Below, piece after piece: positions 10,501-60,919 of a stretch of 64,000 nt of DNA. Within the stretch, counting starts at the first letter, position 1, and every line of letters begins with the position of its first letter. This DNA is from Protoeuglena noctilucae (lineage: Eukaryota), in contig OY253675.1 of assembly GCA_958009085.1 (NCBI GenBank), positions 868,001-932,000 of the forward strand, read 5' to 3'. The notes under the pieces were generated by a model. The model ran no database searches, was not told the DNA's origin, and saw only the letters and a list, made by a program, of their open reading frames with translations. The position numbers were made by a program, and so were the translations under genes.

Positions 10501-11661
10501 CGCGACCACCGACCCATCACGGGACAAGACAGGTGCGTGTGGGTGCCCACCGCCCTCGGGTTACTCCCCACTCCTCGTCCCACCTGTCGCGTCCCAAGCA
10601 TCTTCTCGTCTCTCCCCGCAGTGGCGGGCGCCTTGGACTCGGGCGCGCTCTCCCCCGAGGGCCTCGGGGAGGTGCTCATCCAGTACATGCACTTCCTGAG
10701 GCGCACCGAGGGCATCCTGTCCGCACGCAAGCTCTTCGCCAGCCGCGCCGTCAAGTGGCCCGACTGCCCGTGGACCGTCTTCGCGGCCGCGGCGCTCATG
10801 GACTGGCACCACGACCGCAACACCAAGGCCGTGCGCAACATCTTCGAGTTCGGGGCCAAGAGGTTCCTGGGGTCGCCGGGGTTCGTGCGGGAGTACGCGC
10901 GGTGGCTGGCCTCCCAGGGCGACGACGTTAACGCCCGCAACGTGATGGAGAGGGCGCTGGACGCGTGCCCGCCCGAGGCCGCCCCACGCATGTGGGACGT
11001 GCGGTTGGCGTTCGAGTCCGAGGCCGGCAACACCACGGAGGCGGCGGCGGTGGAGGACCGGCGGGCCGCGGCGCTGGCCGGCAGCGGGGCCGTCGACGCG
11101 GACTGGGACCGGCTCGTGTGCCTGCTGGGCCGGTACAAGCACTTTGACGTGTGGCCGTCCAGCGCGCCCGACCGCGTGCACATCCGCCGGATGCTGGGGC
11201 TGGTGCAGAGGCGGGTCGTCGTGGGGGAGGGCGCGGCGGGGGCTGCGGAAGCCGACGCAGCGGAGGCGCCGAGGGCGGGCGCGGGGGCGCAGTGGGCAGA
11301 GGAGGGTGGGGCTGGGGTTCCGGGTGGGGCGGTGGGGGCGGGGGCTACGGGTGGGGGTGGAGGGGCGCAGTCACGGCGGCAGGACGGGGAAAGGGGACCC
11401 CCGGCGAGGAGGCGGCGGCAGGAGGGCGCGGCGGGGGGCGAGGGGCCGTTACACGGTCCCTTGGCGGTGTTGGTGTCGCGGCTGCCCACCCCCGCCAGGT
11501 ACGTGGGCACGGTGGTGGACCCGTCGCTGGTGCTGGACGCGCTGCAGAACCCGGCGGTGCGGCCGTCCTGGCCCAGGCCGGCGCGGCGGGGGAAGCGGGA
11601 CCTGGGGGAGCGGGACGGGCCGCAGGGGGAGGAGCGGGGGCAGCGGCCGCGGTATGGGTGA
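7547..11661 (+). CDS. CSTF77: Cleavage stimulation factor 77 kDa subunit (Rna14/Suppressor of forked, HAT repeats), about 10 exons
   Basis: YDEMLAVFPTAADQWKRYA; VRKAFEFALDRVGQALDSGPLWEAYVTFLK; LRRAYQRALRVP; WKAVLQWEKKN; QYMHFLRRTEGILSARKLF; RNIFEFGAKRF. Confidence 0.92.
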
Positions 11662-23513: not shown

Positions 23514-25989
23514 ATGGCTGCCGCAAGGATCGTCTTGTCGGCAAGTCAGCCTCGGCTGCGCGGTGAGAGGCCGCGGGGGGGCGGGGGATGCCCGGTTGCG
23601 CTGCTGGGCCACAGAGGCGCTCACGCAGGAGTCGACAGGGCCCGAGCGGCAGCTGTGACCCCTCTCCCGCTCTAATACGTCACCTAGGAAGCGGCCCGCG
23701 CGTGGGGCTCGGCCACCTTCGGGCCAGTTGCGCGCCCTGGGCCAGAGGATGGGCCCCGGGCCACCTGTGCCCCAGGACGCGCAGCCGCTCAGATCGGGGC
23801 CTTGGCCAGTCTCGCGGGGATGGCTCTGGTTCAAAGCATCCCTTCGCCGTCGCGCGCGCGGGATCTGGGCTTCGGGTGCCCGATCTCGGGCCCCGGGGGA
23901 CGTGCCTGCACGCTCCCTCGGGGACCCGAGCGCGAGCCTGGAATCGCGCGGGTTTCGCTATCGTGTTTTCGAAGCGCGTTTTTGCGCCGTGCGGGTCGGC
24001 ATGCCGCCGTTGCGCGTGCCGATCCTTCGTCCCGAGTGCGGCACGCGCGCCCCGACCTGCTCATCCTTGGTGGGCGTGTCCGTTGCGTCGATTTCCGTGC
24101 GGCGCGCCTATGTCGCCGGCTGTATTCGTGGCGCCCGCCCGAGGATCACGGGCAAGCTTCCCACGCGCGCATGCGGTTCCCATCCGCATCTGGCGGCGTG
24201 CGGCCCGGCAGCCCGGCAGGACGCGCTGCAGAGGTGTGCATATTGCCCCGTATCACGCGCGTGGCCGCCCGTTCCCCGCAGGGCGTGGGGGGAGGGTCCA
24301 GGCCGCGCCCAAGCCGGCGACCGCCACGGCGACCCCTCCCGCGATGGAGCATGCGCCTCTGCCGTACCAGGGTCCCATTATCCTGAACGGGCAGCTCGCG
24401 CACTCGCTGACCCGCGAGCGCCTCGAGGTGGTGCGCTCCCTGGACGACTGGGCGGAGTCGGATCTGATCAAGCTCCTCAAGCCGGTGGACAAGTGCTGGC
24501 AGCCCACCGAGTTTCTGCCCGATTCTGCCGACCCAGATTTTGAGGACAAGGTGGGGAGTCGCGTTTGCAGGGCCGGCGCGGTTGACGCAGGGAGGGGTTT
24601 GCGCATTCGTGGCGTGGTGGTGGGGGTGCGGCTGACGGACGCTGTCGCCCGTGCCGCAGGTGCGGGAGCTGCGCAAGCGGGCCGCCAACGTGCCTGACGA
24701 CGTGCTGGTGACTCTCGTGGGCGACATGATCACGGAGGAGGCCCTGCCGACCTACATGACGATGCTGAACACGCTGGACGGGGTGCGGGACGAGACGGGG
24801 GCGTCGCAGACGGCGTGGGCCAAGTGGACGCGTCAGTGGACAGCGGAGGAGAACCGCCATGGGGATGTCATGGTGAGGGGCTGGTGGAGTCGATGCGCGA
24901 TGCCAGCGGCTGTGGGAGACCCGTGTTGGCAAGTCTTGGTCGGGCGACCCGAGGAATGGCCTGCACCTCGCTTCGCTCATTCCTCCCCAACGCCCTGTCG
25001 CAGAACAAGTACCTGTACCTGACAGGGCGCGTCAACATGCGTGCCGTGGAGGTGACCATCCAGAAGCTCATTGGCTCCGGGATGGACCCCAAGACGGAGA
25101 ACAACCCCTACCTCGGCTTCGTGTACACGTCGTTCCAGGAGCGCGCCACCAAGGTGAGGCGCAGGAGTGGCACTCGCCGGCTGCCCTCCCCATTCAGAAG
25201 GGCAAGTTGCAAACACCGGCAGCCCGGCCTTCCGCGGCGCAGGTCTCGCACGGCAACACGGCAAACGCCGCCAAGGAGTTCGGGGACGAGATCCTGGCCG
25301 ACATGTGCGGACACGTGGCGTCCGACGAGTCGCGCCACGAGATTGCCTACACGCGCATTGTGGACAAGCTGTTCGAGCGGGACGCGGACGGCGCCATGAT
25401 GGCGTTCGGGGACATGATGCGCAAGCAGATTGTCATGCCCGCGCACCTCATGGACGACTTGGAGCACGCGGACAAGGTGGGCGTGGGCGCGATGCATCCA
25501 GCCACGGGCAGGCCCCCAGCACGGCACCCCTCTGCCTTCGAGCGATGCGATGTGCGTTGCTGAGGCTTTGGCGCGGAGGCCCCAATGCGAGCGTCTCCCG
25601 CAGAACAACGGCCGCAACCTGTTCGCCGACTTCTCGGCGGTGGCGGAGAAGACCAAGACCTACACAGCCTTCGACTACGCGGACATCATGGAGCACCTGA
25701 TCAAGCGGTGGTCCATCGCCGACCGCCACTTCGACCACGGCGACGCTGCCGCGGCCCAGGTGAAGGGGGGGATGAGGGCTGGATGAGGCCTGGGCATGCC
25801 TGCCTGCAGATCCTGCTGATGCACAGCCGCTCAGCCTCGGTTCTGTTCGGCCGGCGCCCGCAGGAATACGTCATGGCCCTGCCCCCGCGGATCCGCAAGC
25901 TCGCGGAGAGGGCTGCCGCGCGGCAGGCCAAGGCGGGGAAGCTGGACATCAAGTTCTCCTGGATCTACGACCGCCCCCTCACGGTCTGA
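23514..25989 (+). CDS. FAB2: Plastid stearoyl-ACP delta-9 desaturase, 7 exons
   Basis: [40 protein letters not shown] di-iron motifs. Transit-peptide exon [16 protein letters not shown] (23514-23562) joins in phase to the exon at 24282. Confidence 0.97.
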
Positions 25990-35185: not shown

Positions 35186-37044
35186 TCATGCCACGATTTT
35201 CCTCGTCCGCGCAAACAGCGTGTCGACGACCCGCCCGATGTTCTGCGGGGGCCGTCGGTGGATGTGCCTGTTGCCGAGCCGTGCAGCTCGCGCACGCCAT
35301 CCTGCACATGCACGCCCGTGGCCTTGCCTGGAAGATGTCTGTTGAAAGCTGGAGAAGCTGGTCGCTCTCCCCGCTGTCGAAGATTTCCAGGCACCCCGCG
35401 CCCTGGTCGAGCGTGGCCCGGAGCTTCTTGTCCAGAATCATCTGCGCCAGCTTCTGCTGCACCAGCTCCACGGGCAGGTTAAGCATGCCCGCCACGTGGG
35501 ACACCTCCACGCTTGTGTACGGCTCGACGATCTGCGCCGGCCGAGGAAGCAAAGATCGCCCGGTGTTAGGGGGCAGCTGGTAAGACGAGGCGACACAGCG
35601 GGCCATTGTCACTCAATCGGTGACATGAATGCCCCGTCCACGCATCTGCGACCATGTGCTCCTTGCTTGGCTGCCGCAGCGCTCGCCTTTTGGATGTTCT
35701 CCTCCAGCAGCTTGTTGCGCAGCTCTTCCAAGTGGTTGAACACCAGCAAATCCTCCCGCAGCTCCGTCCGGTACGACTCCAGCGCCTTCTGGAAGAGCTC
35801 CAGCGAGCGCTCCTGGCTGGCCTTGGCCACGTCGCGCATGGCGTCGATGTTGGGCCCTGCCCACTTGAGCCCACCCTTGGACGCGATGATGCCGGGGACC
35901 TCCGACGCACTGCCCTCCATGACCTTGCACAGCAGCATGTACTTGAGGGACATGACGGCCCTGGCGTCATTGAGGCCAGACAGTGCCTCAAACGCCTCAA
36001 AGAAGTAGGAGCAGGCGGTCGCGTAGTCGTGGTCCTCGGCGTGCAGCGTGCCGGACTGCATGTCGATGTCGGCCTGCGGAAGGCAGAGAGCCAAAGGACG
36101 TCGGAAAACAGAAAGGGTTTGCATCTGCGCCAGGGGACAGAACGGTCAGGCAAGCGCAGCACCTGCGCAAGGGGGGGCACGTAGACGGAGTTCGCGGCCG
36201 TCCGCGCAGCAGTCAGCGCCGCCCGGGCCTTGGGATAGTTGCGCAGCTCGTGGTGGCACCGAGACTCGATCAGATGGATATCGACCAGGAGGAGCTTGTC
36301 ATCCAGGCGCTTGACCTGCGCATGGGGCGGTGGGGGTGGTTCCGCGCGTCGCCTACCAACGGGAATGGCGCAGGGAGGTCGGATGCGTCACATCAACGGG
36401 CGCGCGGCGCCGCTCGCCTCGGTGAGGAGTTCCGCGATGAGGGCCAGTGCCTTGGTGTACTCCCGCGTTTCCAGGAGAAGGGCCGCCAGCCGGATCTGGA
36501 TGCGCTGGCGCAGGAAAGTGCGCTTCTCGGCCCTGCACCACTCGACCTGCTCGTTGCACAACTGCATTTGCAGCTGCGTCGTCCCGGGGATCTGAGCCAG
36601 CGTGTCGATGATGACTCGGACCAACTGCGTGCGGGGGGAGGGCATTTGAAGGCACGGGTCGATGGATGCGCGAGCGAGAATGTGTTGTGCACGGACGGGC
36701 GCCATCCAATCGCGCGAGATCTGGAGTGGAGCCCATGCACGCGCCTTGGCGGTCTTGGCTTTGGGGATGGCGCCGAACAGGGGCCGGAGCTCCACGAGCA
36801 GCGCCTTCACCGCCTCCGCATTGCTGTCCTTCGCAAGTTGGTTCACCAGCGCCGCTATCGCCTCCTCCTTTCGCTTGACCGCCTCGACCGTGTCGAGCTT
36901 GCCCTGCGCGCGCGGGCGCGGGGCTCGTGAGTCAGCTGACGCTGACAGTGCCAACGTGACGGCATGAGGAAAGACATACTACAAGCTCACGTCAAATATG
37001 ACGGATCTCAGCTCCTCCACCGTCTTCGGCAGCTCCTCCGCCAT
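35186..37044 (-). CDS. RPN6: 26S proteasome lid subunit RPN6/PSMD11, 7 exons
   Basis: [89 protein letters not shown] (PCI domain). Confidence 0.97.
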
Positions 37045-37587: not shown

Positions 37588-40500
37588 ATGCACGCGCGTC
37601 CGGAACGTCATGCCAAGCCGGCTAGCGCTCCCGTGAGCGTGGCATCGACGCGTGAGTGGGCAGAGACATCCTCTCTCTCGACGGCTGCGCTCGGGAGCGT
37701 TCGACCAGCCTCATTGCTTGCCTGCCGCACGCCTCACTCCGTCCAGCCCTTCTGCGCGCAGCTCGCAAGGACGTTCCTTCCGTGACCACGTTCGTGGCGC
37801 CTGCCTTGCAAAGGGTTAGGAGCCTTTCGGGTGCACCCACGCCAGCCAAGGCACCAGCTGCCCCAGCTCGTGTGGAAGATGGGGAGGACCTCGCGGCACG
37901 TGTCCGAAGGGCGATGGAGGATGCCGAGGACATAGCCAAGGTAAATGACTTGACCAAGCACTCCTGGCCCTGCTGCCCGCCAATTTGGAGCTGCATATAC
38001 CACGACAAACCCTGTCCCTGGTATTGCACAGCTACAACACAGCGTGTGGGACAACTGCAGGAAACCCCAGGAGCCCTGTCCCCGGAGCGGCGCCCCCCTC
38101 CTCCAGACGCGGGCCCGGCCCCGGCCGTCTCGAGCCCCCGGCTGGCGAATACCGCATCGGACGTGTCCATGGATGAGCTGGAGGGGCTCGTGCCGCCCAT
38201 ACGACCGCTGCGGCACGAATTCAGCGATATTGGACTCGACATCCAGAGAATCCTGGGGGAGGATGCTGCGGCCAGCGTAGCCCGCCCCAAGAGCTCTGAG
38301 AGCCGGTGAGTGACAAGGCTGGTGCCTAGATCTCGCGTAGCCCGCGGCAAGGGTGTTTCGCATGCCAGCGACTCCGGGCAGCCGCAGGGTGGCCAGGAGC
38401 GAGGCTGGCAGCGAGGCGCCGTCTCCCAGCCAGCCGCGGGTGGTGAAGCGCAGCGCGTCGGTGCGGCAGAGCCCGGCGTCGCGTTCGAACGCATCCCTGC
38501 GCAGCTCCTCGTCCCGCCAGCTCATGTACGGCCCGGGATACACGGAGCGCCTCTCGCTGACGGGGACGGAGCGCCCCGCCTCCGCCGCCACCCCAGGCCC
38601 GGCCGTGGCATCGGCGTCCGCCCGGGCACGCACGCCGGGGGGTTCTCTGCACCCCGAATCGGCCGTGAGCTCCGAGGCCAGCGCGGCGGCCCTGGGGCGC
38701 CCAGGGGACGCGGCGCCTGGGGTCCGGCAGGAGCGGGTGCGGGTGGCGGTGCGCGTCCGCCCGGCGCTGCGGCAGCTGCGGGAGCACACGGGCGCTGTGG
38801 AGGTGCTGCCGGACGGCTGCTCGGTGCGGGTCCACCGGCACCTGTCCCTCAAGTCCCAGATCCGCTTCACGGACATGTCGTTTGACCACATCCTGGGCCC
38901 GGGGGCGGGGCAGGAGGACGTGTACGGCGTGGTGGCGCGCGAGGTGGTGGAGGACGTGGTCCGGGGCTACAACGGCACGGTCATGGCGTACGGGCAGACG
39001 GGCGCGGGCAAGACCTTCACCGTCGGCAACATGGTCAGCACGTCGGGAATCATCCCGCGCGCCGCCTCGGAGCTCTTCCAGATTCGCGAGCAGGACGTCG
39101 ACCACGAGTACTCCTTCTTCATGTCGTACGTGCAGATCTACTGCGAGCAGATCCAGGACCTCCTGAAGCCCGCCAACGACAACCTGCAGCTGCGGGAGGA
39201 CGAGCGGGGCCAGGTGGTGCTGGCGGGCGTGCAGGAGGTGGCCGTCAACAACATGCAGATGAGGGCGCGGAGGGCGGGGAGTTGCGTGTTCTTGACTGGC
39301 ATCATGTCGACGTGGTGACTGACGCACCCCTTTCCGCCCCTGCACGAGTGCATGCAGCTGCTGCAAGTCGGGGAGCGGAACCGCACGTATGCCTTCACGC
39401 GCCTCAACGCCCAGAGTTCTCGTTCGCATGCGGCGGTCATCATCACCGTGGAGAAGCGGCGGGCCCGGCAGGACCTGGCGTCGACGGACGTTCGGACGAT
39501 GAAGGTCGGGAAGCTGTACCTGGTGGACCTGGCGGGGTCGGAGCGGCTCAAGAAGAGCGCCTCGGGTGAGGGCGGTGGGGATGCTCCGTCGCTGCGTGGC
39601 AGGCGGGCGCACAGGACTTTGTCGGACGCGCAACGCCGCCCCGCTTCGCAGAGGGCCAGCGTCAGCACGAGGCCAAGGCCATCAACCTCTCCCTCACGAC
39701 GCTGGGCATGTGCATCAACGCCCGCGCCTCCAACAACCCCAACGCGTACGTCCCCTTCCGGGACTCGAAGCTCACGCGGCTGCTGCAGGAGTCGCTGGGG
39801 GGCAACGCCAAGACGTCCCTGGTGGTGTGCGTGCCGGACGCCGTCGAGCACATCGAAGAGACCATGTCCTCGCTGCAGTTCGGGCAGCGCGCCATGGCCG
39901 TCCTCATGCGGCCCCGCGTCAACGAGGTCATGGACCCGGACCAGTTTACGGCCGAGCTGGAGGAGCGCATCAGCCGAGCGGAGACGGCCAGGTGGGGGGG
40001 GGGGGGGGGGTTGGGGTAGGAGAGGGACTCTTGCAGCGCGCATCGCACGCGCGGCCGTCGTGTCTGGCTGCCCGTCAGGCCCCCTGCGTGTGCCTCGCCC
40101 CGCGTGCAGGGAGATGCTCAAGGCGGCGCTCTTCTCCAAGCAAGAGCAGCTCGAGGCGCTGCGTGCGGCGATGGAGTCGGACCACTTCACGCAGCGCCAG
40201 AAGCTCAGAGACGTGGCCGTGAGGTTCAAGGAGCAGAAGGCCGCCCTGCAGGCCGAGCAGGCCAAGCGCGCGGAGCTCGAGAGCACCTGCCAGGTGCGCT
40301 GCTGGCCCCGGCACAGCTCGAGGATAGATGTGCGTTCGCATCTACCCGGTCGCTGCCTGTTCTTGACTAGCAACCCCCCGCTGTCCCACCGCAGCGCCTT
40401 CAGTCCCAGGTCGGGACTCTCGAGGCTTCCATCGCCGAGCTGCAAGCCTTCTCCTCCTCTCTGGTCAAGAGCAACGCGGAGCTGCAGGGTCTGAACAAGT

Positions 40501-42156
40501 TCCTCCACGAGCAGCTGGACGCCTTTAACCGGAGAGCCGAGGAGGGGTCGGGCACGGCAGTGGCGGCACGGGTGGGCGTGGCAGGGTCGCATGCATTGAC
40601 AGCTTCATGCGCGCGCTGATGCAGTCTTTGACTTCTTTTGTTGTCGAGACTCGATCGCAGGAGGACGCCCTGCGTTTGGCGACGGAGGGCGAGGACCTGC
40701 GCCAGGAGTTGCGTCGGGGCGAGGAGCGCGTGACGAGTCTGCAGGACCAGGTCGGGGATCTGCTGGAAGCCAACCGCGTGCTGCGCGGGGTCAATGCGGA
40801 GCTCGAGGCGCAGGTGGAAGAGGCGGACCGGCAGGCGGATGCGGCACAGGCAAGGGCAGCAGTGGGCGCGGCAGTATTTGTGGCGGGTCCCAAAGTGTGT
40901 CACGGTTTGCGCATGTGACAGCGCTTGAGAGCAGCGTGCGCGTCTAGCATGCGCGTGTCTCCTCTGGCGGTGCAGGACGCGCTCCGGCAGAGCCAGGCCC
41001 AGGCCGAGCGGCAGGCGCAGGACATTGCCCAGCTCAAGGAGATGCTCAACAAGTGGCAGGAGGAGACGGCGGAGACGCACCGCAAGAACCGTGCCGCGAG
41101 GTGGGAACATTCGGGGCTGGCATAGGACGGGCATTCATTTCAAGCGCAGTCGCCCATCGCTTGCCCCGCACTGTCTTGTGTCGCAGGCGGATCCAGAAGG
41201 CGTGGCGACGGCACCGGTTGCGGCGTCTCGTGGCCAAGATCAACGACTCGAATCGGGCGGCGCGGGAGAAGGCGGGGCAGCTGCAGGAGGCGCAGGACAG
41301 GAGGAGGGGCGTGCTGCTGTGGGTGGGAGCGGGGGTCGTCACCAAGTCGATCGAGAGCGTGTCAGCCGCCGCTGAGGCCCTCTGCCAGATGATGCTGCTG
41401 CCAGGTGAGGCTCGGCTGCCGAGGCCCCCCGACACGGCAGTCGTGCACACATAGCCTGAACGTCGTACTGCTCTTCTTTCTTCACAGAGAAGGACCTCAA
41501 ACGGCACCTGGTGATGAAGCAGCGGAGCTTCACGGCGTTCAAAGCAGACAAGGACGCGGATGTGGTGAGGGGAGCGGCACCGCCATGCCCGCGCTGCAGC
41601 ACAGACAAGCGCCTTTCGACCGCACTGACCCACGGAAATCTGCTTGGCATCTCTCGTACGCAGGGGCCCTCCTCGAGAGCACCGGACAAGCGACCAGGCG
41701 GCTACGAGACGCCGCGACGCCCTCCCTCTCCGGGCCCCTCGGGCGGGGGCATGGCGCCAGGGAGCGTGACGGGCGCGAGCCAGCAGGGGGCGCCCGCAGC
41801 GGCAGGCACCTCGCGCCTGCTCAAGGTAAGCACTGTTCACGTCAGGCAGCCCCTGCGGCCTTGGTGCCTGCCGTGCTACGAATTCGAAGGGGGTGACGTG
41901 CGCACGCGTCATGTCCCCTGGCCTCGACGTGGTGAATCGGGTTTCACGCCCGCAGACACGCACGCCGCTCAAGGAACGCCTGTTCGGGTCGTGGTCCCGG
42001 AGAGACTTGCGCGACAGCGCCGGGTCTGCGTCCGAGTCGGTGGCGGGGACGCCGAGGTCGAGCCGGGCGCCGAGCCTGACCCACGGAGGGGCGCAGCACA
42101 TGCAGCCCATTCCGTTCGCCGCGCCCCTCTCTGCCGCGGCTTACCAGCGCAACTAG
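37588..42156 (+). CDS. Kinesin with an ARK-like motor domain, coiled coil and C-terminal IQ motif; about 12 exons, including one AT-AC intron
   Basis: RVRVAVRVRP; YNGTVMAYGQTGAGKT; SSRSHA; LVDLAGSER; AINLSL; VPFRDSKLTRLLQESLGGNAKT; FGQRAM. Start inferred. Confidence 0.92.
39259..39345 (+). other. AT-AC intron with U2-type signals in the kinesin gene
   Basis: CAG|ATGAGG...CTGAC...CCCCTTTCCGCCCCTGCAC|GAG. It contains an in-frame TGA (39316-39318). Removal restores GVQEVAVNNMQ|ECMQLLQVGERNR at consensus kinesin spacing. Confidence 0.8.
39994..40010 (+). repeat. G homopolymer (about 17 nt) at the 5' end of a kinesin intron
   Basis: GTGGGGGGGGGGGGGGGGGTTGGGG directly after the splice donor. Confidence 0.8.
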
Positions 42157-42203
42157 CAGCGAGGCGTGCCCACGAACGCCAGAGCTCTCTTGCGCCCGCT
42201 CCA

Positions 42204-43647
42204 TCACGCGAGCCCTTCGACGCCCGCCCCCGTCCGCGCAATGTCATCCATGGCGCGAACGACGCGCGGCCGCACCGCGGGCCACGCTCCCGTGACGACC
42301 ACGCGCCCCTCATCCATCAGCGTCACGCTATCGGCCTCCTCCAGCTCGTCCAGCCGGTGCGTCGCCCACACGCACGTCACGCCCGAGTGCCGGACCACGT
42401 CCCGCACGGCCTGCGATGGGAGCGCCGCAGAGGCCACCCCCGCTCACGCTGGGTCATGGCCACATGTGCATGCCGCTGTGCAGCCCATGCGTGCTGGGCA
42501 GCTAGGGAAGCAGCGTCGGCGATGTGTGAAGAAGCAAGCAAGCGATGGGTACATCGTGACGCCTATGGCATCCCGCAGCCCATGCCACTGGGCGCACCTG
42601 CAGCACATTCCCCTGCTCCTCCTCGTCCAAGTATGTCGTGAGTTCATCCAGCAGCAGCAGCCGCGGGCGCTGGACGAGCGCCCCCGCGATGGCCGCGCGC
42701 TGCTTCTGTCCCCCCGAGAGGCTGTGGACTGGCCTGGGGTGGCGGGGAGGGGCGGGGCCGTCACGAGCGCTCATGACACATGCCTGGGCGCTTTGACGCG
42801 TGGCACGCAAGGCGCGCGGCACTGTCACCGATCGGCCAGCTCCCCGATGTTGAGGCGGGCGAGGGCCGCCAGGGAGGCTTCCCACCGGTCCTGAGGGGCG
42901 CTGCCATCCTGGATGCCGAGCGCGACGTCGTGGCCCAGGGTGGGCATCACCACCTGGTGGTCGGGGTTCTGGAACACGAAACCAACCGGGCGGTCCACGT
43001 CCACCTGTGAGACGCAGACTGGAGCGTGCAAAGTTGCATCCAGGTGCAGACCACCATGTTAGACAGGCCCCGCGCTTCGACTGCTCCTCGCCTCGCCGCT
43101 GGATACGGGCGCCAGGCCCCCAATGGCTTTGATGAGCGTCGACTTGCCACACCCGTTGCGGCCCACGAGCATGTGGAGGTGACCCCTGAAGAAGGGGAAA
43201 GATTCGCGGCCTTCGTCGGGTGACCCACTCGTCAGCCAGGCATGTGAAAAGTAGCCCTTAGCTTGATTCACCTTGCAATATCAAGGCTCACGCCATTCAA
43301 GATCCTTCTGGACCCCAAATCGACGGCCAGGTCCCGGACGGACACCGCAAACTGTGTGGGGTGCTCTCCGGCGGCCCTGGGAGCCACCTGAGCACGCTTC
43401 CGGCGTAGTCTATGTGGATGTAGCCCGCAAACGTGGCAGCTAGCTAAGGTCGACATCGCACGGTCCAGGATGAAGACCAGCTGTCTTTTTCTCCCTCTCT
43501 ACGTGGCTGCAGGCGACGCCTCACGAAGACGACCCCACGACCACCAGCCTTGCTTATGCATGCATACGTCGGCAGCCTGCCGCCGCTGTGTATGTGAGGG
43601 TGCACTGCGCACTGACGTGAACTTGCGAGGTGCCGGAGGCTGTCCAT
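42204..43647 (-). CDS. ABCI10: ABC transporter I family ATPase (ABCI10 / ECF-CbiO-like), probably plastid; start uncertain
   Basis: Walker [11 protein letters not shown]-loop [31 protein letters not shown]; Walker [22 protein letters not shown]. Confidence 0.9.
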
Positions 43648-45947: not shown

Positions 45948-47041
45948 CTACGCACTCGAGATGGCCTGCTCGATGCTGCGCAGCTTCGTGCGAGTAGACA
46001 GATCGATGTACTTGTCCCCCACCTCGACGATCATCCCGCCCATGATGCTCGGGTCCACCTTGGCGACCACCTGCACGCATAGAGGGGTGCGAGTCTCAAT
46101 GGCATAGCAAGGGGGACGGGATTCTCGAGCGTCGCCACGTGCCCCGCGCAGCCGGACACTCGCCTCCAGCGGCTGGGCCGTGCCCAGGATCTTGCCCAGC
46201 AGCACCCCGACCTGCTTGCCCTGGGCCGCCGACAGCGGCTCAAACGTCGTCACCACCGCCATCGACTCGCCGCGGGTGCCCGAGGCCATCCGCATAAACT
46301 CGTCGCAAATGTCAGGGACGTGTCCCAGGCGCCCGCCCTCGCCCAGAACCTGCAGGGGGGTCGCCTCGACACGACGTTGCAAAGCAGGGCGTTGATCCGG
46401 GCACGGCAGCTTGCGTGCAAGAAAAGAACGCACCTCCAGCAGGTTGAGGACCGCCTTGCTCGTGCCCAGCTTGCCCGCCGCCTCGCGCAAGATCCCCATC
46501 TTGGTGGCCGCAGGGGTTGAAGGGTCCTTGAGGAAAGACGTGAGCGAGGGCGTCATCTCCAACAGCCTCTTCAGCGACGTCACGTCGGACTCGACCTCAG
46601 CGGCCACCTTGGCGTTCTGCAGGACGCGGGTGGGCCAGGGGGAGGGGTCGTCATGCAACCGCGCCATTCGCAGGGCCTGCCGTCGCCGTCGCCGCTCCAG
46701 CTCCAGCGACGGGGCGTTTTTGCGCCTCACCTTGGCCTCATTGAAAAGCGCAGCCGCGTAGTTGGCCGAAAGCGAGCCCAGGGCGCCACCGCTTGATGCG
46801 ATGCCGCGAGCCTGCGGGAGGGGAGTCCAGGTCGCCGCTGACGCCCGCGCGGCCAGGCCAGCTACACAGCAGCACGACAACGAGCATCACACGCGTCTTC
46901 CGACGCGCGCAAACCGTCCACATCAGAGGACGCGCGGCAGACCCGCGGACTCGCGCGACAGCACCCCAAAAGCGACGCCGATCTCTTCGTCACTGCACTC
47001 GCCTGCAGGCGGCAGGCGCCGGACACTGCCCGCCGCAGCAT
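45948..47041 (-). CDS. OSCP: Mitochondrial ATP synthase OSCP (delta family) subunit, 5 exons
   Basis: Presequence MLRRAVSGACRLQ|ARGIASSGG; YAAALF; FLKDPS; KVDPSIMGGMIVEVGDKYIDLS. Confidence 0.9.
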
Positions 47042-50011: not shown

Positions 50012-53000
50012 TCATGCCAGGTGCTTGTACATCCGGTCAATCTGCTTCTCGAACGCCTTGACCGCCTGCTGCCGCTTGATCTTGAAGGTCGGCGTGAGGA
50101 GCCCGTTCTCCACCGAAAAGGGCTCGGGGACCAGCGTCACGGCCGCCACCTGCTCAAAACCACGCAGCTCGGCCGCCCGGCCCTCCTGCAGCAGCGCCTG
50201 CAGCACGCCGCTCACGGCGATCTTGTCCCTGGGAAGAGGGGCGTTGAGTGAGTGACACTGGGACGTCTACAGGGGGCGCGCTCCGGCCCCAGCCCCGTCG
50301 TGGCAGAGACACGGACACGCACCGGCACAGCGCCGCCAGGTCCCCGCCCAGCCCCTGCCGCTTGGCCCACGGCAGGAAGACCTCCGGGTCCGGCACGGCG
50401 ATGGCGACCAGGGTGGGCCGCAGCGAGTCCCCGTGCACGAAGCACTGCTGCACCAGGGGGCACCGCTGGTACACCTGCTCGATCTTCTCTGGGGCGATGT
50501 ACTCCCCCTGGGCGAGCTGCGAGGGGGGGGCAGGGGGGCATAAAGATGGTGAGAATGAAGTCGGGTGCGGGTGGTCACGAACCTGGGCTATCCACTCCTT
50601 CACCTTGAAGATGTTCTTCTTGCGATCGATGATCTTGAGCCGGCCGCCCTGGATCCACGTGCCCACGTCCCCCGTGTGCAGCCACCCGTCGGCGTCCATC
50701 ACGTCCCGCGTCTGCCCCTCGTCCTTGAAATAGCCCTGGAACACGGCCGGGCCCCGCACGCAGATCTCCCCCCGGGGGAAGGGCCGGTCCAGGTTGGTGT
50801 AGCCCATCTCTGGGATGTCGTCGAGCTTCACCTCCATCGACGGCGTGGGGCCACCCACGTGGCCGACGATGGGGTCGCCGGGCTCGGTCTGAAGGGGCCA
50901 CGAGGCATAGGCGGATGGGGCGGGGAGGAAAGCGAGCGCAGGGCCTGGGGCCCACGACCCCCGCGGGCTCACCAGCGTGATGACGCAGGAAGACTCGGTC
51001 ATGCCGTAACCCTCCATGATCTCCGGGCAGAAGCACACGCGGAGGAAGTTGAACACGGCGGGGCTGATGGGGGATGCGCCTGTTGAGGGCGAGGCTCAGT
51101 TGGTCATGGATGGGAAGTCTCCTGGGTAAGCTGCCGGCACACCATGTCGCAGTTCATGCAAGGGTACGGGTGTCAGCACCCGAATGCCCGCATGCCAGCT
51201 CGGGTGCCTCACCCGTGATCATGAGGCGCACGCGGCCGCCCAGGCGCTGGCGGATCTTGGAGAAGACCAGGCGGTCCCACATGGCGTCTGCACGCGAGAG
51301 AACGCAGTCATTTGGAATTCCATGGCAGCGAGAGCGCATCAGGTGGCCGGCCAGCTCCACGGGATGCGTCACCAATGACGCCCGAGGGCCGCTGCCCCCG
51401 CTCGATGCCCCGCAGTCGGTTCTGGAAGGCCGTGTCGAAGAGCAGCTTGGCGATCTGCCCAGACTCGGAGACGGCCGCCATGACCTTGTCTGCAAGGGAG
51501 GGCTCGGAGGCACTCGTGCCAGGACGGGCAAGGTGTGACCGGGGTGCATGCAGCGTGTTTGCCCATGTCGGGTGGCGCTCACCATAGATGCGGTTCCAGA
51601 GGCGCGGAACGGAGGCGAAGATGGTGGGCTTCAGGGCCTGGATGTCCTCCACCAGCGTCAGCACGTCCCCTCGGTAGAAGCCAATGCCGCATCCACGGGC
51701 GACCTGCGAGCCACGCGGGGCGAGGGCGTGCGAGTCGACATGGCGTCGTCATCGTCTTTGACAGGCAACTGTCCACCAGGGAGCAAAACACTTGGAGGCA
51801 AGAGGCCCTCTCACGAGGCAGACTTGGTTGATGCGCTCGTAGATGTGCGCGAGGGGGAGGTAGGAGATGTACGTGTCCGTCGGCAGCAGCTCAGTGTACC
51901 CCTCGAGCCCGGCGGCATTGGCGATCAAATTGCCGTGCGTGAGGACCACGCCCTTGGGGACCCCGGTCGTGCCGCTCGTGTAGCAGATCGTGTGGATGTC
52001 AGACGCGTCTGCAGTCACGTGCGCGGCATCTCTTGCCACAGTGCTCTGCAGGGCGGGGCTGGGTCCGGCGCCACGCATCAGTCCACTGGGCTGCGCATAC
52101 TTCATTAGCACCCGCGCCTCACCTGGCGGGATGTGGAGTGCGGGGCTCCGCTGACCCATCTCCCTTGCTGCCTCGAGGCTCAGCACACGGCAGCGACCAC
52201 CCGCGATCATGCTGGGCAGAGTAGCGCCTTCAGACCCCCAGACGACCACGTGACGCACTGCGGAGGGGTGCGAGGCTCAGGCATGGCAGTCGCGTCGCCC
52301 CTCGTGTGGTGGCCCCGTCACGCAAAGCCGTAGCAGGTCCCACCTGTGGGGCACTCATCGATGCACTGGAGCAAGATGGGGAAGACCTGCGGGAAGGAAG
52401 CAGCGAAGAGACATGAAGCACCTCGGGCACAGAGATGGCATGAGCTTCGCCTCTCAGCTCTGCGCTGGCAGGACACTCGCCTGAGCGGAGCAGGTGACGA
52501 GGGTGAGCTCGGCGTGGGAGCAAATGTAACGGACGGCGTCGGACCCGAGCGTGTCATAGAGGGGGACGGTGATGATGGACTGGGATGCGCTGCGTTGGAG
52601 GGGATGCGCGAGCAGGTGGGAACCTGCTGCATAGGGATGCCGGCGGTGGGGCACGACGGCCAGCCTTGGCTCACCACGCAGCGTCGATGAGCACCCACTC
52701 GGGGGAATTGATGCCGTAGATACCGACGGTGGAGCGCGGGTGCAGCCCCAAATGCTGCAGGCAGCTCCCGAGCTCGTCCCGAGCGCGCCCCGCATCCCGG
52801 TAGCTCATCCACGTGTAAGTATCGCCCTTGCGCACCCCCAGATATGGCTGGTCCCCGTGTCGGCGGAGCGCGTTCTCCAGGAGGTCGTACATGGTGCGGA
52901 CGTGTTCCAGCGGGGGGTCAAAGCGCGCCTTGAGGCGGTCTGGCGTCCTCCAGTGGCGTCGCACCTTCCATGGGCCCTAAACAGCACAAATCGTTGGCCA

Positions 53001-53510: not shown

Positions 53511-56115
53511 TCAGGCGTTCCACGCGGGCTGCTCGGCCACGCTCTCCTTGTCCGTGTCGTCACTGGTGCCCCCATCCTCGAACGCCTCCGGCCTCACCGT
53601 CGTGTCCATCACGACCTGCGTGCTCAGGACGGCCTCTGAATGCCGCCCACGAGCCCAGAGCGCCGACCACGCAGCCGCGGACGGCATCTCACCTCCCAGC
53701 CGTCGCACTTGTCCAGGTTGACGCGCCACAGGTCGTCCAGCGTCACCTCCCGGCTCTTCTCGCCGTCCCCCACCTCCACGATGCCGCCGTACAGCCACAG
53801 GTCGCTCCCGCTGACCGCCAAGTGGGCGTTGATACGACCCCGCGGCCGAGGAGCGTCCCGACTCCCCGGATCGACACCGTACGACGCTGGCGAATACAGG
53901 AGCTCCGACACGACGCCCCCCACCCTGCGACACGTGACGTGTTGGGTCTTCTGGGCAGAGCTCCAACTCACTTCGCAAGCCGGCAAGGTCTGACCCGCCA
54001 GGCTCACCGGTATGCGATGTAAGCCTTGCGCACGACGTATCCCCGGAAGCGGGCCTGGATCTTCACCGCCGCCTCGTGCTTGCGGCCGCCCGAGCTCCCC
54101 GGCTCGTCCACGTCCATGTCGTCCTCCTGCCGCTCCCTGCCCTCGTCCCCTTCGCCCCCGCCTTCGCCGTCCTTCCCCTTGCGTCGACGTCGCTTCTGCC
54201 CCTGCAATCGCAGCGCCGAGAGGCCAAGCACATTGGCGGCGGTGACCCACTGTGGAGTGCAGTGCAGGTCGGGTCGGAAGCCAATCCAAGGCCGCTCCTG
54301 CGCATGGTGCCCCTTGCCTGGTCTGGCCTCGGAGGACGGATGTCCAGAGGGAACCATCGCCTGGTGGCGTACACGAACGAGTAGACCTCGCTGCAAGGAA
54401 GGCGATGGGGTGCCTTGGCCCGAGACCTAGCCAACACCGCACCCTCGCACGCAGACGCGAGTGAGCTGTCGCTGCACTCACTTGTAGAACTCCGAGACCA
54501 TGAGGTCTCCGTCCCTCCCCGCGTCGGCGTCAGACACCCCCCCAAACAGCACCGCCCGCTTCTTGTGCTGCACCATCCCGAAACCCGACCGAGGCCCTGA
54601 GGAGAGGGAGCAGCAGATCGCTCCAAACACGTGGGCGCTAGTTGCTAGGCGCAAGGGACCAGTCGACCAACGAGGCATGGGCCCTCACCGGGTGCCATGC
54701 CCTGCCGGGCGGCCTTCTCCCATCGCCAGTCCTTCAGATTGAGCACCCACATGTCCGTGTGCACCTTGGCCCTCTCAATCTCCTTGTCCTCGTCGTCGGG
54801 CTCCCGGTAGTAACCCCCGTACAGGTACAGGGAGTCCCCGAACACGGTCATCTGGCAGCCGCTCCTTGGGCTGCGGGCAGCATGCAGTAGAGCACGGCGT
54901 CGGCGAGCGCCATCAGCGCCCTCGAACGGTGGATGCCCTCTCTTAACGCACCTGGGCCCCGTGGCGGGGTCGCCGACGCTCTCCCACCGGTTGAGCGTCA
55001 TGTCAAACACCCACAGGTCGTTGTAGTATTTGATCGTGTCCCCCGTGTCGTAGAAGCCTCCGAAAAGGACGATGAGGTGCTTGTACACCGCCATACGGTG
55101 GCCGGACCGCGCTGACGGCCCGCCCTTGCAGGGGATCTGTGCCCACACTTGCTGCTCCAAGTCCAGCTTCCAGAGGTCCCGGAAGTGATGGAACTGCAAA
55201 CGGAAGACGGGGTCGACGGGTGAAGTGGCAAGTGCGTGGACTAGCTGTAAGCATGTTGCTTCCAGCCCCTGTCGGCGAGCAAATACGTGCCCCAGGGTGC
55301 CCCTTGCCTTGGTTTGGTTCGGCGACGTAAACTCCCCCCCGAAGATGTACATGAAGCCTTTGAACAGCACCGCCTGGTGGGCGCTGCGGGCCTGGGGACC
55401 CCCGGGGATGAGGACGCGGCTCCACTGGCGCGCGCCCACATCGTAGCGGAAAAGGTCGCCGTAGACGTAGGTCTGCGGACACGTGCAGGTACCCACGGCA
55501 TCTCGGGAACCGTAATGTCGGCCGCTGCACCCGAACAGCAGCACGCAGGCCGGCCCATGCCGAGGGTCGCACACCCCCCTGCCAGTCACCCACCTTGTCG
55601 TTAGCGGCGTCGTAAAACTCGCCGCCGTAGATGATGAGCTCGTGCTTGGCCGAGCGGCCCTCCCCGGAGCTGTGGGCCACCAGCGATGCGTTGACGCGGG
55701 GGCTCGGGGCGGGTGTGTCCGTCTCCACGATTACCTGCGGGGATCAAGAGCTGGCGCTCGCGGGGACGCCGGCTGCCTCTTGAGGATGCGCGCGTCGCCG
55801 GGCGGTCGTGGCGCACCCACCTGAGTGCGCCGCTTGTCTTCCATAGCCAGGGCAGCCAGGATGGCGTCCACATCGTCCTCGTCGCCGTCCAGCAGGCGCG
55901 CCGCACGCCGCTCCTCTTTCTCGACGCGCTTCGCGGTTTTGTCTGTAAGGCAGGGGTTTCGGGAGGATCGACGAGGAAGCGCGCGTGCAGAGGTCGGTCC
56001 CCACCGCGGAGGGGCCTGGCCACCGCGCACGCGCGCACGCACTGGCCGTCTTCTGGGCGCCAAGGCCTGCCGGCTTTGGATTCTTCTTCTTGCGCTTGTC
56101 CCTGCCAGTGCCCAT
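53511..56115 (-). CDS. KLHDC4: Kelch domain-containing protein 4 (Kel3-like) with an inserted IQ motif, 10 exons
   Basis: Basic N-terminus; PSPRVNASL; LIIYGGEFY; FGGEFTSPNQTKFHHFRDLW; PSARSGHRM; YYNDLW; REVTLDDLW. Confidence 0.92.
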
Positions 56116-56512: not shown

Positions 56513-59500
56513 ATGGGGAAGAAGACGAAGAAGGGAAAGGGACGGCTGGATAAGTACTACCACCTCGCCAAGGAGCAGGGGTGCGTGACGGGCCGCCGGC
56601 GCACATTGCCGCCGCCAGCGCCGCTGGGGAGGCTGCAACGTGGGCAAATAGATACAGTAATTCTTGACCAGAATATGGCTGTGCTTGTTTGGTCACTCGC
56701 GGCGCCCTCGCGCGGCGGGTGGGCACAATGGCGGCAGCGGCCTAGCGCGCCGAGGCGGTCGCACGACGCGCGAGCCGCGAGCCTTCGTGACTCATCCAAC
56801 GAAGTGGCTACGTCATGAAGCGCTTGCATAGGCCAGCCTCGGTCCAACACAGGCCGTAATCGCTGCGCGCATCCACCCTAACCCATAAACACACGCTTCG
56901 CTCCGTCCGCGTTGTCTCTCCGCAGGTACCGATCGCGTGCGGCATTCAAGCTCATTCAGCTCAATAGAAAGTACCAGTTCCTGGAGAGTTCGCGGTCGCT
57001 GCTGGACCTGTGCGCAGCGCCGGGGGGATGGCTGCAGGTTGCGGCTAAGACCATGCCCGCCTCTTCCCTCATCCTCGGAATCGACCTCGTCCCCATCCGC
57101 CCGATCCGGTGAGTCCCTCGCCTCGCGGCCTCTTGCGTTGCGCCCTGTGATCCTCGTGGACGGCGCGGGGGAGGTCCCACCGCGCAGATGCCGTCAATGT
57201 GCAGCTTGCCTTTCGCTCGCAGGGGGGTCGTCACGCTGCAGGGAGACATCACGACGCAGAAAGCGCGGCAAGATATCAAGCGGGAGGCCAAGGGCGCGCT
57301 GTTCGATACCGTGGTCCACGATGGCGCCCCAAACGTGGGCGGGGCATGGACATCCGAGGCATACAGCCAGGCGGCTCTGGTCCTCGACTCGCTGAAGCTC
57401 GCCACCGAACATCTCAAGCCTGGTGGCACCTTTGTGACGAAAGTGTTCCGGTCGCGTGAGTACACGGCGCTGCTGTACGCCCTAAACCAGCTTTTCGAGC
57501 GCGTGGAGGCCACGAAGCCGCCTTCCTCGCGTAACACCTCCGCTGAGATCTTCGTCGTCGGTCTGAAGGTGACTGGGTGTGCTACAGAACCTGCAGAGAT
57601 TCGATAAGAAAGCGTCCTGAAAGCGCAGCGCAGCGCATAGAAGCACCTCAGACTGCCATGCATGTCGTGGTTGCGCAGTACAAAGCACCCGCCAAGATCG
57701 ACCCGCGTCTGCTCGATCACAAGGTCCTGTTCCAAGAGGTGGAGGAGGCGCCTCGAAACATGGGCCCGGACGCGCTGGTAAGCATCGAAGCTGCAATGTC
57801 AAAATAGATTTTTGTAACGTGCTTTGTTTGGATCTCGAGGGTTTGGACACACGGGGTGTAGGTGCAAGGACTGGCCACCTCCCTCTTCACTGCCGTTCAC
57901 CCTGCCCTCCCTCCCACAGCTGAAAATGAAAGCCAAGCAGCGGCGTTTCCGTGAGGGGTACGAGGACGGCATTTCGACGACACACAAGGCCATGAGCGCA
58001 GCTACGTTCATCCTGAGGCAAGCGTTTAGCATCTGCCGGCAGCGCGACGGATTGTTTGGCTGGACAGGCTCTGATGACCGGTCGCGACGCCCCCTTGCCT
58101 GCAGCGAGAGTCCGGTCGAGCTGCTGGGCAAGCACACGCAAATCCTGCTCGATGGCCCGCAATCCGAGACCGTGGCGGAGCCCGCGAGCGATGGGGATAC
58201 GCAGAAGACCTCGCTGGGGCGCCCCGAGGAAGCCGCACGGGTAGCAGAGCTGGCGAGGACGAGCGACGCAACGACGACAGAAGTCCGCAGCCTTTGTGGG
58301 GACCTGCAGGTGCTTGGGCGCTCGGAGCTGAAGCAGCTGCTCCGGTGGCGCTTGGCGCTTCGGCGGCATGTGGACAAGTGGCGCAAGGATGCCGACAAGG
58401 TTGAGGCGGACGGGCTGAAAGAGGGGGAAGCTGCGGATGGTGAGGGGGAAGTACAAATGCAGAGGTGGATAAAAATGCGACGCCGACGCGTGATGCCCGT
58501 CGCAAACGGGGACATACGAGAGTATGTGGTGCCTCTCACTTTTCGCAGTTACGCCGGAAGGGATGGATGCTGGGGAAGCGGCGCTGCTGAAGGAGATGGC
58601 GGAGGTGAAGCGCAGGATGGAGGAGCGCCAGAAGCGGGACCGCAAGCGGCGGAGGGAGACGAAGAAGAAGGCAAAGATTCGGGCGGCTCAGGCCCGCATG
58701 GTTGGCGGCGGGGACCGGGACATGGAGCTGTTCGACCTCAAGGAGATCAAGAGTCGAAAGAACGTCCAGGCGGTGACGGAGGCGCCCATGCCTGAGGTAA
58801 GGGGACGGGCTCTGCGAGGCAGTCGAGTGGCTCTGCGAGAATGCGCAACAAAGGGCTTGTTCTTTGTTTCGTCAGAGCGGGGAGGTGGAGGAGTCTGAGT
58901 CGGAGAAGGAGGACATGTCTGATTATGGGGGGAGTGACAGCAGCGAGGAAATGGCCAGCGAGGAAGAGGACCAGCTCAGGCAAGAAGAGCTCAGAGCCTG
59001 TTCGCCAAGGCACGTCAAGAAAGATTGAGAACTCCGACCGACGTCTTGTATGCACTTACCAAACCATTTTCTGTTCAACAATCTCCAGGTACGAGGCACT
59101 GATGGAGGAGTACCTCGAGCGGGGCTATCGAGAGCAAGCAGTGAAGCAGGGGACGCTGTACAAGGGGGAGGGTGACCGGGTCGCACTGCCCAAGCACCGC
59201 CTCGACGACGATGGGGAGCTCGGGCAGGATGGAATGGGGGACGCCGAGGCGGTCGCGCTGAAAGCAGCTGAGGTCGCGAAGGTAAGCTCGTGAAAGCCTG
59301 CATTGGCTGGATGAGTGGGAATGCACAGCATGAGAGATGTCAGCGCTGGCAGACTTGAGGAAGCCGGTGCTACTGTACCCCTCCTTGTGTTTCCTTGCAG
59401 CGTTTAAAGCGCCCACGGCGAGAGGAGGAGGAGGATGGAGGCCTGGTTGTCACGTTTGACGAGCGCAAGGCGGGCATCCCATCAACGAAGGCAGCCATGG

Positions 59501-60919
59501 CACAGCAGTGGTTCAGGTGGAGAGGGGTGACAATGTAGACTAAACATGTAGACTAAACACCGCAGCACGCGCCTTTGCATTCCGACCCACCCTCTGCGTG
59601 GATACAGCGACAAGCTCTTCCAGGACGTCTTGGCCGATGGAAGCGACCAGGAGGATGGCGATGACGAGGCCGTGCCTGCGGGAAGACCAGACAAGATCAA
59701 GGATGGAGTAGAGCTGTCGTCGGATGACGAGGAGGGGGCTGCAAATGGCGCGGGCGGGGCAAGTGTTGCGGAGGACTCTGATGAGGAGGAGGCGAGGGAC
59801 ATTCTTAGGATGAAGGAGCAGGTGATGACGTCAACGCCATCATTGCGCTTGCCGCTGCTTTCAACGTTGCCCATGGGAGCGAGCAATATTACACCCTGAA
59901 CGCGTTGTCACCTGCAGCATTTGGCGGGGGGGAGCGGGCGTGACAAGGCCGGAGAAAAGGGCAGCGCTGTCATGTCCTTGGCAGCGAAGCGGGACGCGAA
60001 ACGAGCTGGGTTTGAGGTGGTACGGGCAGAGTCGCCACGCCGCAGCAAGGGTGGAGCAGGGGATTCGGGGAGCGACAGCAGCAGAGATTCGAGCGACTCG
60101 GGTGACAGAGCTGGACAGAGCTTTTGTATGTACCTCATTGCAGCTTAACCACGTTGGAGCTTACCGGTGCATCGTCCTCCCCGCAGAGGACGAGTTCGAG
60201 GCCCTGCCGGACAACGCCAAGGCCGAGGTGCTGGCCCTGGCGCGCAAAATGATCCGGGCCAAGGGACGTCAGTCGATTCTGGACGCCGCATACAACCGCT
60301 ACGCTTTCCACGACGACAATCTCCCCGAGTGGTTTGAGGAGGACGAGGAGAAGCACATGAGGCCGCTGCCGCCCGTCACGCCAGAGGAGATCGAAGCTGA
60401 GAAGGCCCGCCTCCGAGCCATCGACGCGCGTCCCATCAAGAAAGTCGCGGAGGCGAAGGCGCGAAAGAAGAAGCGAGCCGTTGCAGCCATGGCGAAGGCA
60501 CAGGCCAAGGCAAGGGGCTGCTGGGAATGCAGAGCACTGTGTTCAAAAGTCCTTTCCATTTGCAAGACGTGCCCTGCACTGTGTTGTTCGCCCAGGCTCA
60601 GCAGGTGGCCGATCAGGAGGACGTGCCCATGGGCTCGCGCATGCGGGAGATCGCTCGCATCTACGCCAAGGCCAAGCGAACGGGGAAAGGGGTGAGCCGG
60701 CGACACTGTGGTGAAACCTTCAGTTGTCTTGTTGGTGTAAATAATATTCGACATGCACGCTTCTTGCAAAAGCAGGGGAAGGGTGGCAAGGGCCGCGACA
60801 ACAAGCGCAAGGGGCCACCGCTGGATAAGCGACTGAAGAAGGACCTTCGGGGCCAGAAGAAAGCCGGGAGGGGACGTGGGGGGAAAGCTCGTGGGGGTAT
60901 CAGGAAGGGTGGGAGGTAA
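56513..60919 (+). CDS. SPB1: Pre-rRNA 2'-O-ribose methyltransferase SPB1/FTSJ3, about 15 exons
   Basis: [88 protein letters not shown]. Confidence 0.97.

Follow-up and report, generated by a model that had tools for sequence, protein, structure and literature searches.

A probable U2-type AT-AC intron in the motor domain of an expressed kinesin gene from a marine green alga

Introduction

How an intron that begins with AT and ends with AC comes to be removed from a transcript, when the rest of it looks like the GT-AG introns of the same gene, is the question raised by a kinesin gene of Protoeuglena noctilucae. The gene lies in contig OY253675.1 of GenBank assembly GCA_958009085.1, within positions 868,001 to 932,000 of the forward strand. 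This stretch of 64,000 nucleotides (nt) is the window referred to throughout, and positions are counted from its first letter. The intron occupies 39259-39345 on the plus strand, is 87 nt long, and interrupts the motor-domain reading frame in phase 0; it is defined by an RNA joint together with the DNA sequence. The DNA carries A at the first intron position (+1) and C at the last (-1), and the mRNA is joined exactly from 39258 to 39346, leaving the kinesin motor uninterrupted. We consider it very likely that this is a genuine spliceosomal AT-AC II (U2-type) intron in an expressed gene of a GC-rich marine green alga, and we infer from its signals that the major spliceosome excises it.

AT-AC introns with U2-type signals are known but scarce. 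Sheth et al. (2006, PMC1557818) count 15 in human, 6 in mouse, 3 in fly, and none in worm or Arabidopsis, or 24 among 610,067 introns in the five species, in keeping with the original prediction for this locus, which had called such introns very rare. There, the introns of SCN4A and SCN5A are given as the only AT-AC II introns with experimental proof, AT-AC II introns are described as kept in orthologues, and work is cited in which a G-to-A change at +1 is rescued by a G-to-C change at -1 in yeast and human U2-type introns. AT-AC introns average 0.06% in plant annotations (Pucker and Brockington 2018). For Chlamydomonas reinhardtii, Bartschat and Samuelsson (2010, PMC2846911) report no U12 small nuclear RNAs (snRNAs) and zero U12 introns, and they list 7 "other AT-AC introns" against 25,053 GT-AG and 532 GC-AG introns. 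In the Chlorophyta that they covered, Olthof et al. (2024) found neither minor snRNAs nor minor introns, both of which occur in Chara and Klebsormidium, two streptophyte algae (Larue and Roy 2023). Our literature search, made at the level of article listings, returned no paper tying a U12 intron to a kinesin.

Results

Is the intron removed at its AT and AC ends? Thirteen sequencing runs contained the whole or part of the stretch, 4 of them recorded as RNA. Four of the thirteen were aligned to positions 37600-42600, namely X1, which is DNA-like, and the metatranscriptomes X8, X9, and X12; X8 and X9 are different samples from a single study, and the evidence consists of assembled contigs. Position 39258 was joined directly to 39346 in X8 record 17 (1655 nt) and in X9 record 20 (1454 nt), and the joint was listed as "skips 87, AT..AC" and both=0, with 124 and 219 nt on its two sides and 0 other letters. 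Because both=0, the cut cannot be moved to another dinucleotide, nor are there common letters able to produce the joint during assembly. The same X8 and X9 contigs excised eight neighboring GT-AG introns and one GC-AG intron. X12 had no piece spanning the joint and is neutral, neither for nor against. Thus, two of the three RNA runs carry mRNA joined exactly at the AT and AC ends, as the original prediction had expected of cDNA.

Other ways of processing the same transcript were sought in these data. A GT-AG alternative at 39238-39348 is 111 nt long and would delete VAVNNMQE, which is the cost of about 8 residues that had been foreseen. Its joint, 39237/39349, was not among the 15 joints listed of a total of 20. 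As for retention, X9 depth in the bin 39270-39436 was 3.79, equal to the contribution of the spliced contig itself (6.96 x 91/167), and thus nothing aligned on the intron in that run.

Removal of the 87 nt, which start with ATGAGG and finish with CTGCAC, restores the motor frame. The junctions read atgcag/ATGAGGGCGC...CCCCTGCAC/gagtgc, the 3' part in longer form being GTGACTGACGCACCCCTTTCCGCCCCTGCAC/gagtgc. Unspliced, the upstream frame runs through GVQEVAVNNMQMRARRAGSCVFLTGIMSTW to a stop, the in-frame TGA at 39316-39318 on the plus strand, which would terminate the protein upon intron retention; the intron-encoded residues after GVQEVAVNNMQ are MRARRAGSCVFLTGIMSTW. Spliced, the frame resumes at 39346 with ECMQLLQVGERNR, or in longer reading ECMQLLQVGERNRTYAFTRLNAQSSRSHA. 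The exon upstream (38388-39258, plus strand; motor part 38731-39258, with the P-loop GQTGAGKT), supported by translation, Pfam, and RNA contigs, ends in NNMQ and encodes the N-terminal half of the motor. It matched Pfam PF00225 with residues 8-175 on profile positions 1-174 (E=3.3e-38, 131.9 bits). The exon downstream (39346-39565, plus strand; Pfam and RNA contigs), which carries switch I (SSRSH) and switch II (DLAGSE), matched with residues 1-72 on profile positions 176-242 (E=8.5e-19, 68.1 bits). The C-terminal motor part lies in a third exon at 39652-39991 on the plus strand, where 39654-39989 matched profile positions 246-326 (E=2.7e-27, 96.1 bits). All three scores exceed the curated cutoff of 29.3 bits. 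Since the profile runs from 1-174 to 176-242 across the joint, nothing is lost or gained there. The spacing of relatives agrees: an uninterrupted homolog, P0004, reads …VEVRSIDESMKVLQVGERNR… and Chlorella reads …EVSNITQCLHLLHLGDRNR…, the same as the spliced window product. The original prediction, made from the letters of the window, had placed the TGA at 39316 and held that taking out 87 nt brings back kinesin spacing; translation bears out the former, and profile continuity and homolog spacing the latter. Every statement of its observation proved correct.

Which splicing signals does the intron carry? The comparison set was small and local, namely the gene's remaining 10 introns with RNA support. 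The 5' splice site, cag/ATGAGGGC (39259-39266, plus strand), is identical from +2 to +8 (TGAGGGC) to that of the next intron (GTGAGGGC). As cag/ATGAGG it agrees with 6 of the 7 positions of MAG/..RAGT, a joint best score for the 11 introns of the gene. Its base at exon position -1 is the same in 10 of 10 others, and its bases at +2 to +5 are shared with 9, 8, 6, and 10 of the 10. At the 3' splice site, GCAC/g (39342-39345, plus strand), positions -4 to -2 (GCA) are common to 9, 10, and 10 of the others. Departure from the comparison set is confined to +1 and -1. CTGAC at 39319-39323 (plus strand) is by its motif a candidate U2-type branch site, whose A (39322) is 23 nt away from the 3' end. 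A pyrimidine-rich tract (CCCCTTTCCGCCCCT) follows at 39327-39341 (plus strand), and the pyrimidine fraction from -30 to -4, 0.70, is tied for highest in the gene. Apart from its end bases, the intron thus resembles an ordinary local intron, as had been claimed.

Signals of the U12 type were not found. The 5' site mismatches ATATCCTT at 6 of 8 positions, no better than the gene's GT-AG introns do, and does not conform to RTATCCTT. The consensus of the U12 branch site is TCCTTAAC, and its usual distance from the 3' end is about 10 to 20 nt. The intron's best match to it, with 2 mismatches, stops 49 nt short of the 3' end, and matches with 2 mismatches also occur in 3 of the 10 other introns, which is chance level; candidates no more than 10 nt away from the 3' end show 3 mismatches and no branch A context. 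The original prediction's claim that U12 signals are absent therefore stands. An Rfam search of the 64-kb window, which is the window alone and not the genome, gave 0 hits and no snRNA. A crude scan of the window for AT-AC candidates (donor AT[GA]AG, a branch-like motif, YAC, and open frames rich in GC at third codon positions on both sides) returned 3 donors on the plus strand, one of them 39259, and 0 on the minus strand. Controls gave as many (CT-AC, 6+4; TT-AC, 1+6), and only 6+10 GT-AG donors passed, so that the scan is unfit for counting introns. By the criterion of Sheth et al. (2006, PMC1557818), a 5' site of U2 type apart from +1 makes this an AT-AC II intron, and it is cis-signals, and these only, that support the apparent U2-type assignment.

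Are the A and the C real? The mRNA joint hides the end bases of the intron, and thus the A and the C rest on DNA. The independently assembled X1 record 1, which has 64,396 nt and a depth of about 148, spans 37600-42600 over its full 5001 bases with 0 differences and 0 gaps, and it retains the intron; the AT and AC of the window are therefore also those of the X1 contig. Seven DNA-like runs from two studies contain 0.82-1.00 of the sampled words, a measure of word content and not of alignment. These data support the view that the termini are not assembly errors. Two independent errors yielding exactly an A/C pair had been judged unlikely beforehand, and the X1 contig and the ends implied by a relative (below) agree with that judgment.

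Is the AT...AC state shared with relatives? A search of a protein collection with exon 1 returned three close relatives. P0002 is a prokaryote-style gene call of the window itself that extends into the intron. P0004 (70% identity, 1110 amino acids) is one open frame and matches metagenome locus L001. P0003 (72% identity, 396 amino acids), called as a gene on a 25-kb contig, reads …VHEVEIQGIQ/MSGRDH… and so enters an intron at the same site; since M is encoded solely by ATG, the P0003 intron begins with AT. Across the 3' intron boundary, the P0003 tail (…RPFGSCTSVCRCCRWENATGR…) aligned with the +1 frame of the window (E=3e-6). When its codons were shifted by one base, 29 of 30 positions were compatible with window exon 2, and all 30 with either the window or P0004. 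Seven controls ranged from 3 to 10 of 30 (the other shift, 3/30; slides of 1 to 3 residues, 3-10/30). This register puts TGY-AC right before a conserved GAG, from which the intron would end in …TGYAC and span about 278 nt. Thus, the relative appears to keep AT...AC ends on an intron about three times as long, and the comparison with an orthologous intron that the original prediction had proposed points to a 5' ATG and a 3' TGY-AC. We note that P0002 and P0003, both prokaryote-style calls, enter the AT-AC intron, which starts with ATG, and so stand as chimeric "proteins" in a public protein collection.

A scan of metagenomes found only intron-less relatives, L001 to L005. L001 to L004 are 70% identical to the window copy, and L001, the one inspected, reads …agc atc gac gag agc atg… (SID ESMK) with no intron at the site; L005 (62% identical) reads …aac ttg aaa gag tgc att… (NLK ECIQ), also with no intron there. 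A gene tree built on 16 rows and 177 columns of the exon-1 region had the form (L005,(P0004,(window,P0003))), with supports of 100/99, 95/92, and 89/78, and the intron was found only in the pair formed by the window and P0003. The AT...AC state seems to predate the split of that pair, whose path amounts to 0.39 changes per site in the motor domain. Gain in the pair and loss in intron-poor relatives are both compatible with the tree.

Other features of these relatives were observed along the way. The kinesin of L001 (3001-4200; likewise in L002 to L004) and of L005 (3001-4300) is almost without introns, and the window copy has at least 11. L005 lacks the window introns at 39259, 39566, and 39992. 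It seems to have a GC-AG intron of its own in YVQ/IYCEQ (L005:3406-3512, cag/GCGAGG...GCGCAG/atc), as judged by protein alignment only. The best named kinesin matches are from Chlorella, at about 50% identity.

What are the other introns of the gene like? All lie on the plus strand. Upstream is an 82-nt GT-AG intron at 38306-38387, seen in X8 record 16, which lies on 38059-38304 and 38387-39033, a one-base shift giving GTGAGT...GCAG. The next intron downstream is an 86-nt GT-AG intron at 39566-39651, with a joint of 39564/39651, "GT..AG (cut +1)," in X8 and X9. A 118-nt GT-AG intron at 39992-40109, with an RNA joint, contains a run of 17 G residues (39994-40010). Six further GT-AG introns within 40294-41955 have RNA joints and checked ends: 40294-40394, 40572-40660, 41101-41186, 41405-41487, 41565-41663, and 41826-41955. 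Finally, a 126-nt intron at 40850-40975 was listed in X8 and X9 as the joint 40846/40973, "CA..TG, both=4"; a shift of 3 resolves its ends to cag/GCAAGG...GTGCAG/g, that is, GC-AG, and, the dinucleotide aside, its donor agrees with the consensus at 6 of 7 positions. Hence 2 of the 11 RNA-supported introns, the AT-AC intron at 39259 and the GC-AG intron at 40850, are not GT-AG. No repeat family related to the introns was seen within the window: a blastn-short search of the 11 introns against it gave only matches of 11 to 20 nt with E values of at least 0.004, a null result for an introner or repeat origin.

Two further observations concern the gene. Loose ends of other X1 contigs fall at 39996 and 40011, at the edges of the 17-G run, which may reflect variation in the homopolymer or trouble in assembling it. 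Separately, the 43 nt at 39748-39790 (plus strand), which encode the DSKLTRLLQESLGG part of the motor, have a second match on the opposite strand in X1's 64-kb contig. That match lies about 5.5 kb outside the window start in contig coordinates and may belong to another nearby kinesin gene.

By Pfam, the genes of the window are those of an unremarkable nuclear region of the green lineage. On the plus strand are CstF77/Suf (10411-11658), a stearoyl-ACP-type desaturase (23567-24694), and the Spb1 rRNA methyltransferase (57818-60692). On the minus strand are RPN6 (36391-36978), an ABC transporter (42505-43257), the ATP synthase subunit OSCP (45951-46886), an AMP-binding enzyme (50157-51095), and Kelch repeats (54648-55730). 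The best named homologs of RPN6 are just about 45% identical, land plants and chlorophytes alike. G+C reaches 0.75-0.79 at 12001-16000 against about 0.66 elsewhere in the window. A stop-free frame of 1205 amino acids on the minus strand (11963-15577) has no Pfam match and may be low-complexity coding sequence or an open frame driven by GC content.

Discussion

How might the major spliceosome remove an intron that has neither GT nor AG? U1 and U6 would read cag/AUGAGG, which is consensus but for +1, and U2 would pair at CUGAC, 23 nt upstream of the 3' end. The short distance from branch to end and the strong pyrimidine tract may then aid choice of a 3' site without AG. During the second step, A(+1) and C(-1) as a pair would take over from G(+1) and G(-1), the first and last intron bases that usually contact each other. 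Either single reversion would be expected to harm splicing, and the pair would thus stay frozen, which fits its apparent conservation between the window and P0003. The original prediction's two wider proposals, that the major spliceosome is permissive and that no minor spliceosome is present, stand as inferences.

Several points weigh against the U2-type reading or narrow it. The acting spliceosome is deduced from signals, U11, U12, U4atac, and U6atac snRNAs may yet exist in the organism, and CTGAC is a candidate branch site by motif. RPN6 similarity would place the lineage no finer than Viridiplantae, and published absences from Chlorophyta may for that reason not transfer; they are a guide and not a test. 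The RNA support consists of contigs from one study, which demonstrate presence and not efficiency, rare isoforms, or absence; X12 is silent at the joint, and the joints listed are 15 of 20. The mRNA joint does not reveal the end bases of the intron, DNA alone gives them, and the X1 contig may be the window's own source. Finally, the ends attributed to P0003 are deduced from a protein translation, not from DNA.

Could the minor spliceosome, perhaps in a divergent form, have been kept in this green lineage and remove the intron as a U12-dependent one? AT-AC ends are the classic mark of minor introns, such introns have lately been found in streptophyte algae once believed to lack them (Larue and Roy 2023), and the lineage, placed no finer than Viridiplantae, may have minor snRNAs. 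Nonetheless, we regard a U12-type intron as quite unlikely, given the 6 of 8 mismatches to ATATCCTT, the failure of the RTATCCTT rule, the lack of a TCCTTAAC-like motif near the 3' end, the identity of +2 to +8 with a neighboring GT-AG intron, phase 0, and the absence of minor snRNAs and minor introns from the Chlorophyta surveyed to date. The end bases themselves might instead be misleading, with true ends of GT...AG and the window's A and C arising from base-call or assembly errors or a rare allele. The mRNA joint is silent on those bases, and X1, possibly the source of the window, is the sole DNA run aligned. An error of this kind is highly improbable all the same, as the X1 contig at about 148x shows no other letter, seven DNA-like runs in two studies contain most of the sampled words, a gene call of a separate species implies the same ATG and TGY-AC, and two independent errors would have had to give precisely the compensating pair.

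The remaining alternatives concern the transcript. The AT-AC joint might be a minor or aberrant product, the main mRNA using another junction, such as 39238-39348, or retaining the intron. Contigs give presence and not proportions, the listed joints are 15 of 20, and published double mutants were spliced "less efficiently" (Sheth et al. 2006, PMC1557818). Against this, 39237/39349 is absent among those 15 joints, the spliced contig by itself explains X9 depth at 39270-39436, retention runs into the TGA, and the GT-AG alternative removes 8 residues found in all relatives; we hold a minor product to be very unlikely. As the RNA evidence is assembled contigs only, the joint might even be an artefact of contig assembly or of template switching by reverse transcriptase. 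That is scarcely conceivable, because with both=0 neither a graph shortcut nor a repeat template switch explains the joint, which is identical in two runs whose contigs contain nine other clean intron removals. We therefore return to a U2-type AT-AC intron as the explanation.

How does this putative U2-type intron compare with known systems? Like the AT-AC II introns of animals (SCN4A/SCN5A, TAF2), it combines AT...AC ends with an otherwise U2-consensus 5' site, rarity, and, apparently, preservation in an orthologue. It differs in lying in a kinesin gene of a green alga, in being very short (87 nt), and in a gene that shows no sign of neighboring U12-type introns; moreover, dependence on U2-type snRNAs is experimental for SCN4A/SCN5A and here would follow from cis-signals. 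The "other AT-AC" introns of Chlamydomonas are likewise non-U12, transcript supported, and from a green alga without U12 snRNAs, but in the parts of the source cited they are counts, their genes, signals, and conservation going undescribed there, and the present alga belongs to a distant marine lineage. U12-type AT-AC introns share the dinucleotides, whereas their 5' site keeps rigidly to ATATCCTT and TCCTTAAC marks a branch near the 3' end; both are missing here. The same compensating pair has been engineered into yeast and human U2-type introns as G(+1)A together with G(-1)C; here it is a natural allele, fixed and apparently kept in two species. U2-type GC-AG introns, including 40850-40975, also offset a non-GT donor with a near-perfect remainder of the 5' site (6/7 in both cases here), but GC-AG changes +2 only and is roughly a hundredfold commoner than AT-AC. 

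Why does the lineage carry such an intron? The AT...AC ends might be an ancient frozen state, in which a former U12 AT-AC intron switched to the major spliceosome upon loss of minor splicing, or the lineage's major spliceosome might check terminal dinucleotides loosely. We think either history unlikely; if true, AT-AC introns would be far commoner genome-wide than the approximately 0.003-0.06% seen elsewhere. What is new is this natural case, which leaves knowledge of splicing unchanged; earlier publications cover the class, how rare it is, and the mechanism of rescue. The original prediction rated the novelty too high, since AT-AC II introns and the 7 non-U12 AT-AC introns of Chlamydomonas had been published. 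In practice, gene finders limited to GT-AG and GC-AG would truncate this kinesin or drop 8 residues of its motor. Ultimately, the intron is a clear-cut natural instance of first and last bases that compensate for each other, with transcripts and apparent conservation in two species, from a poorly known marine green lineage.

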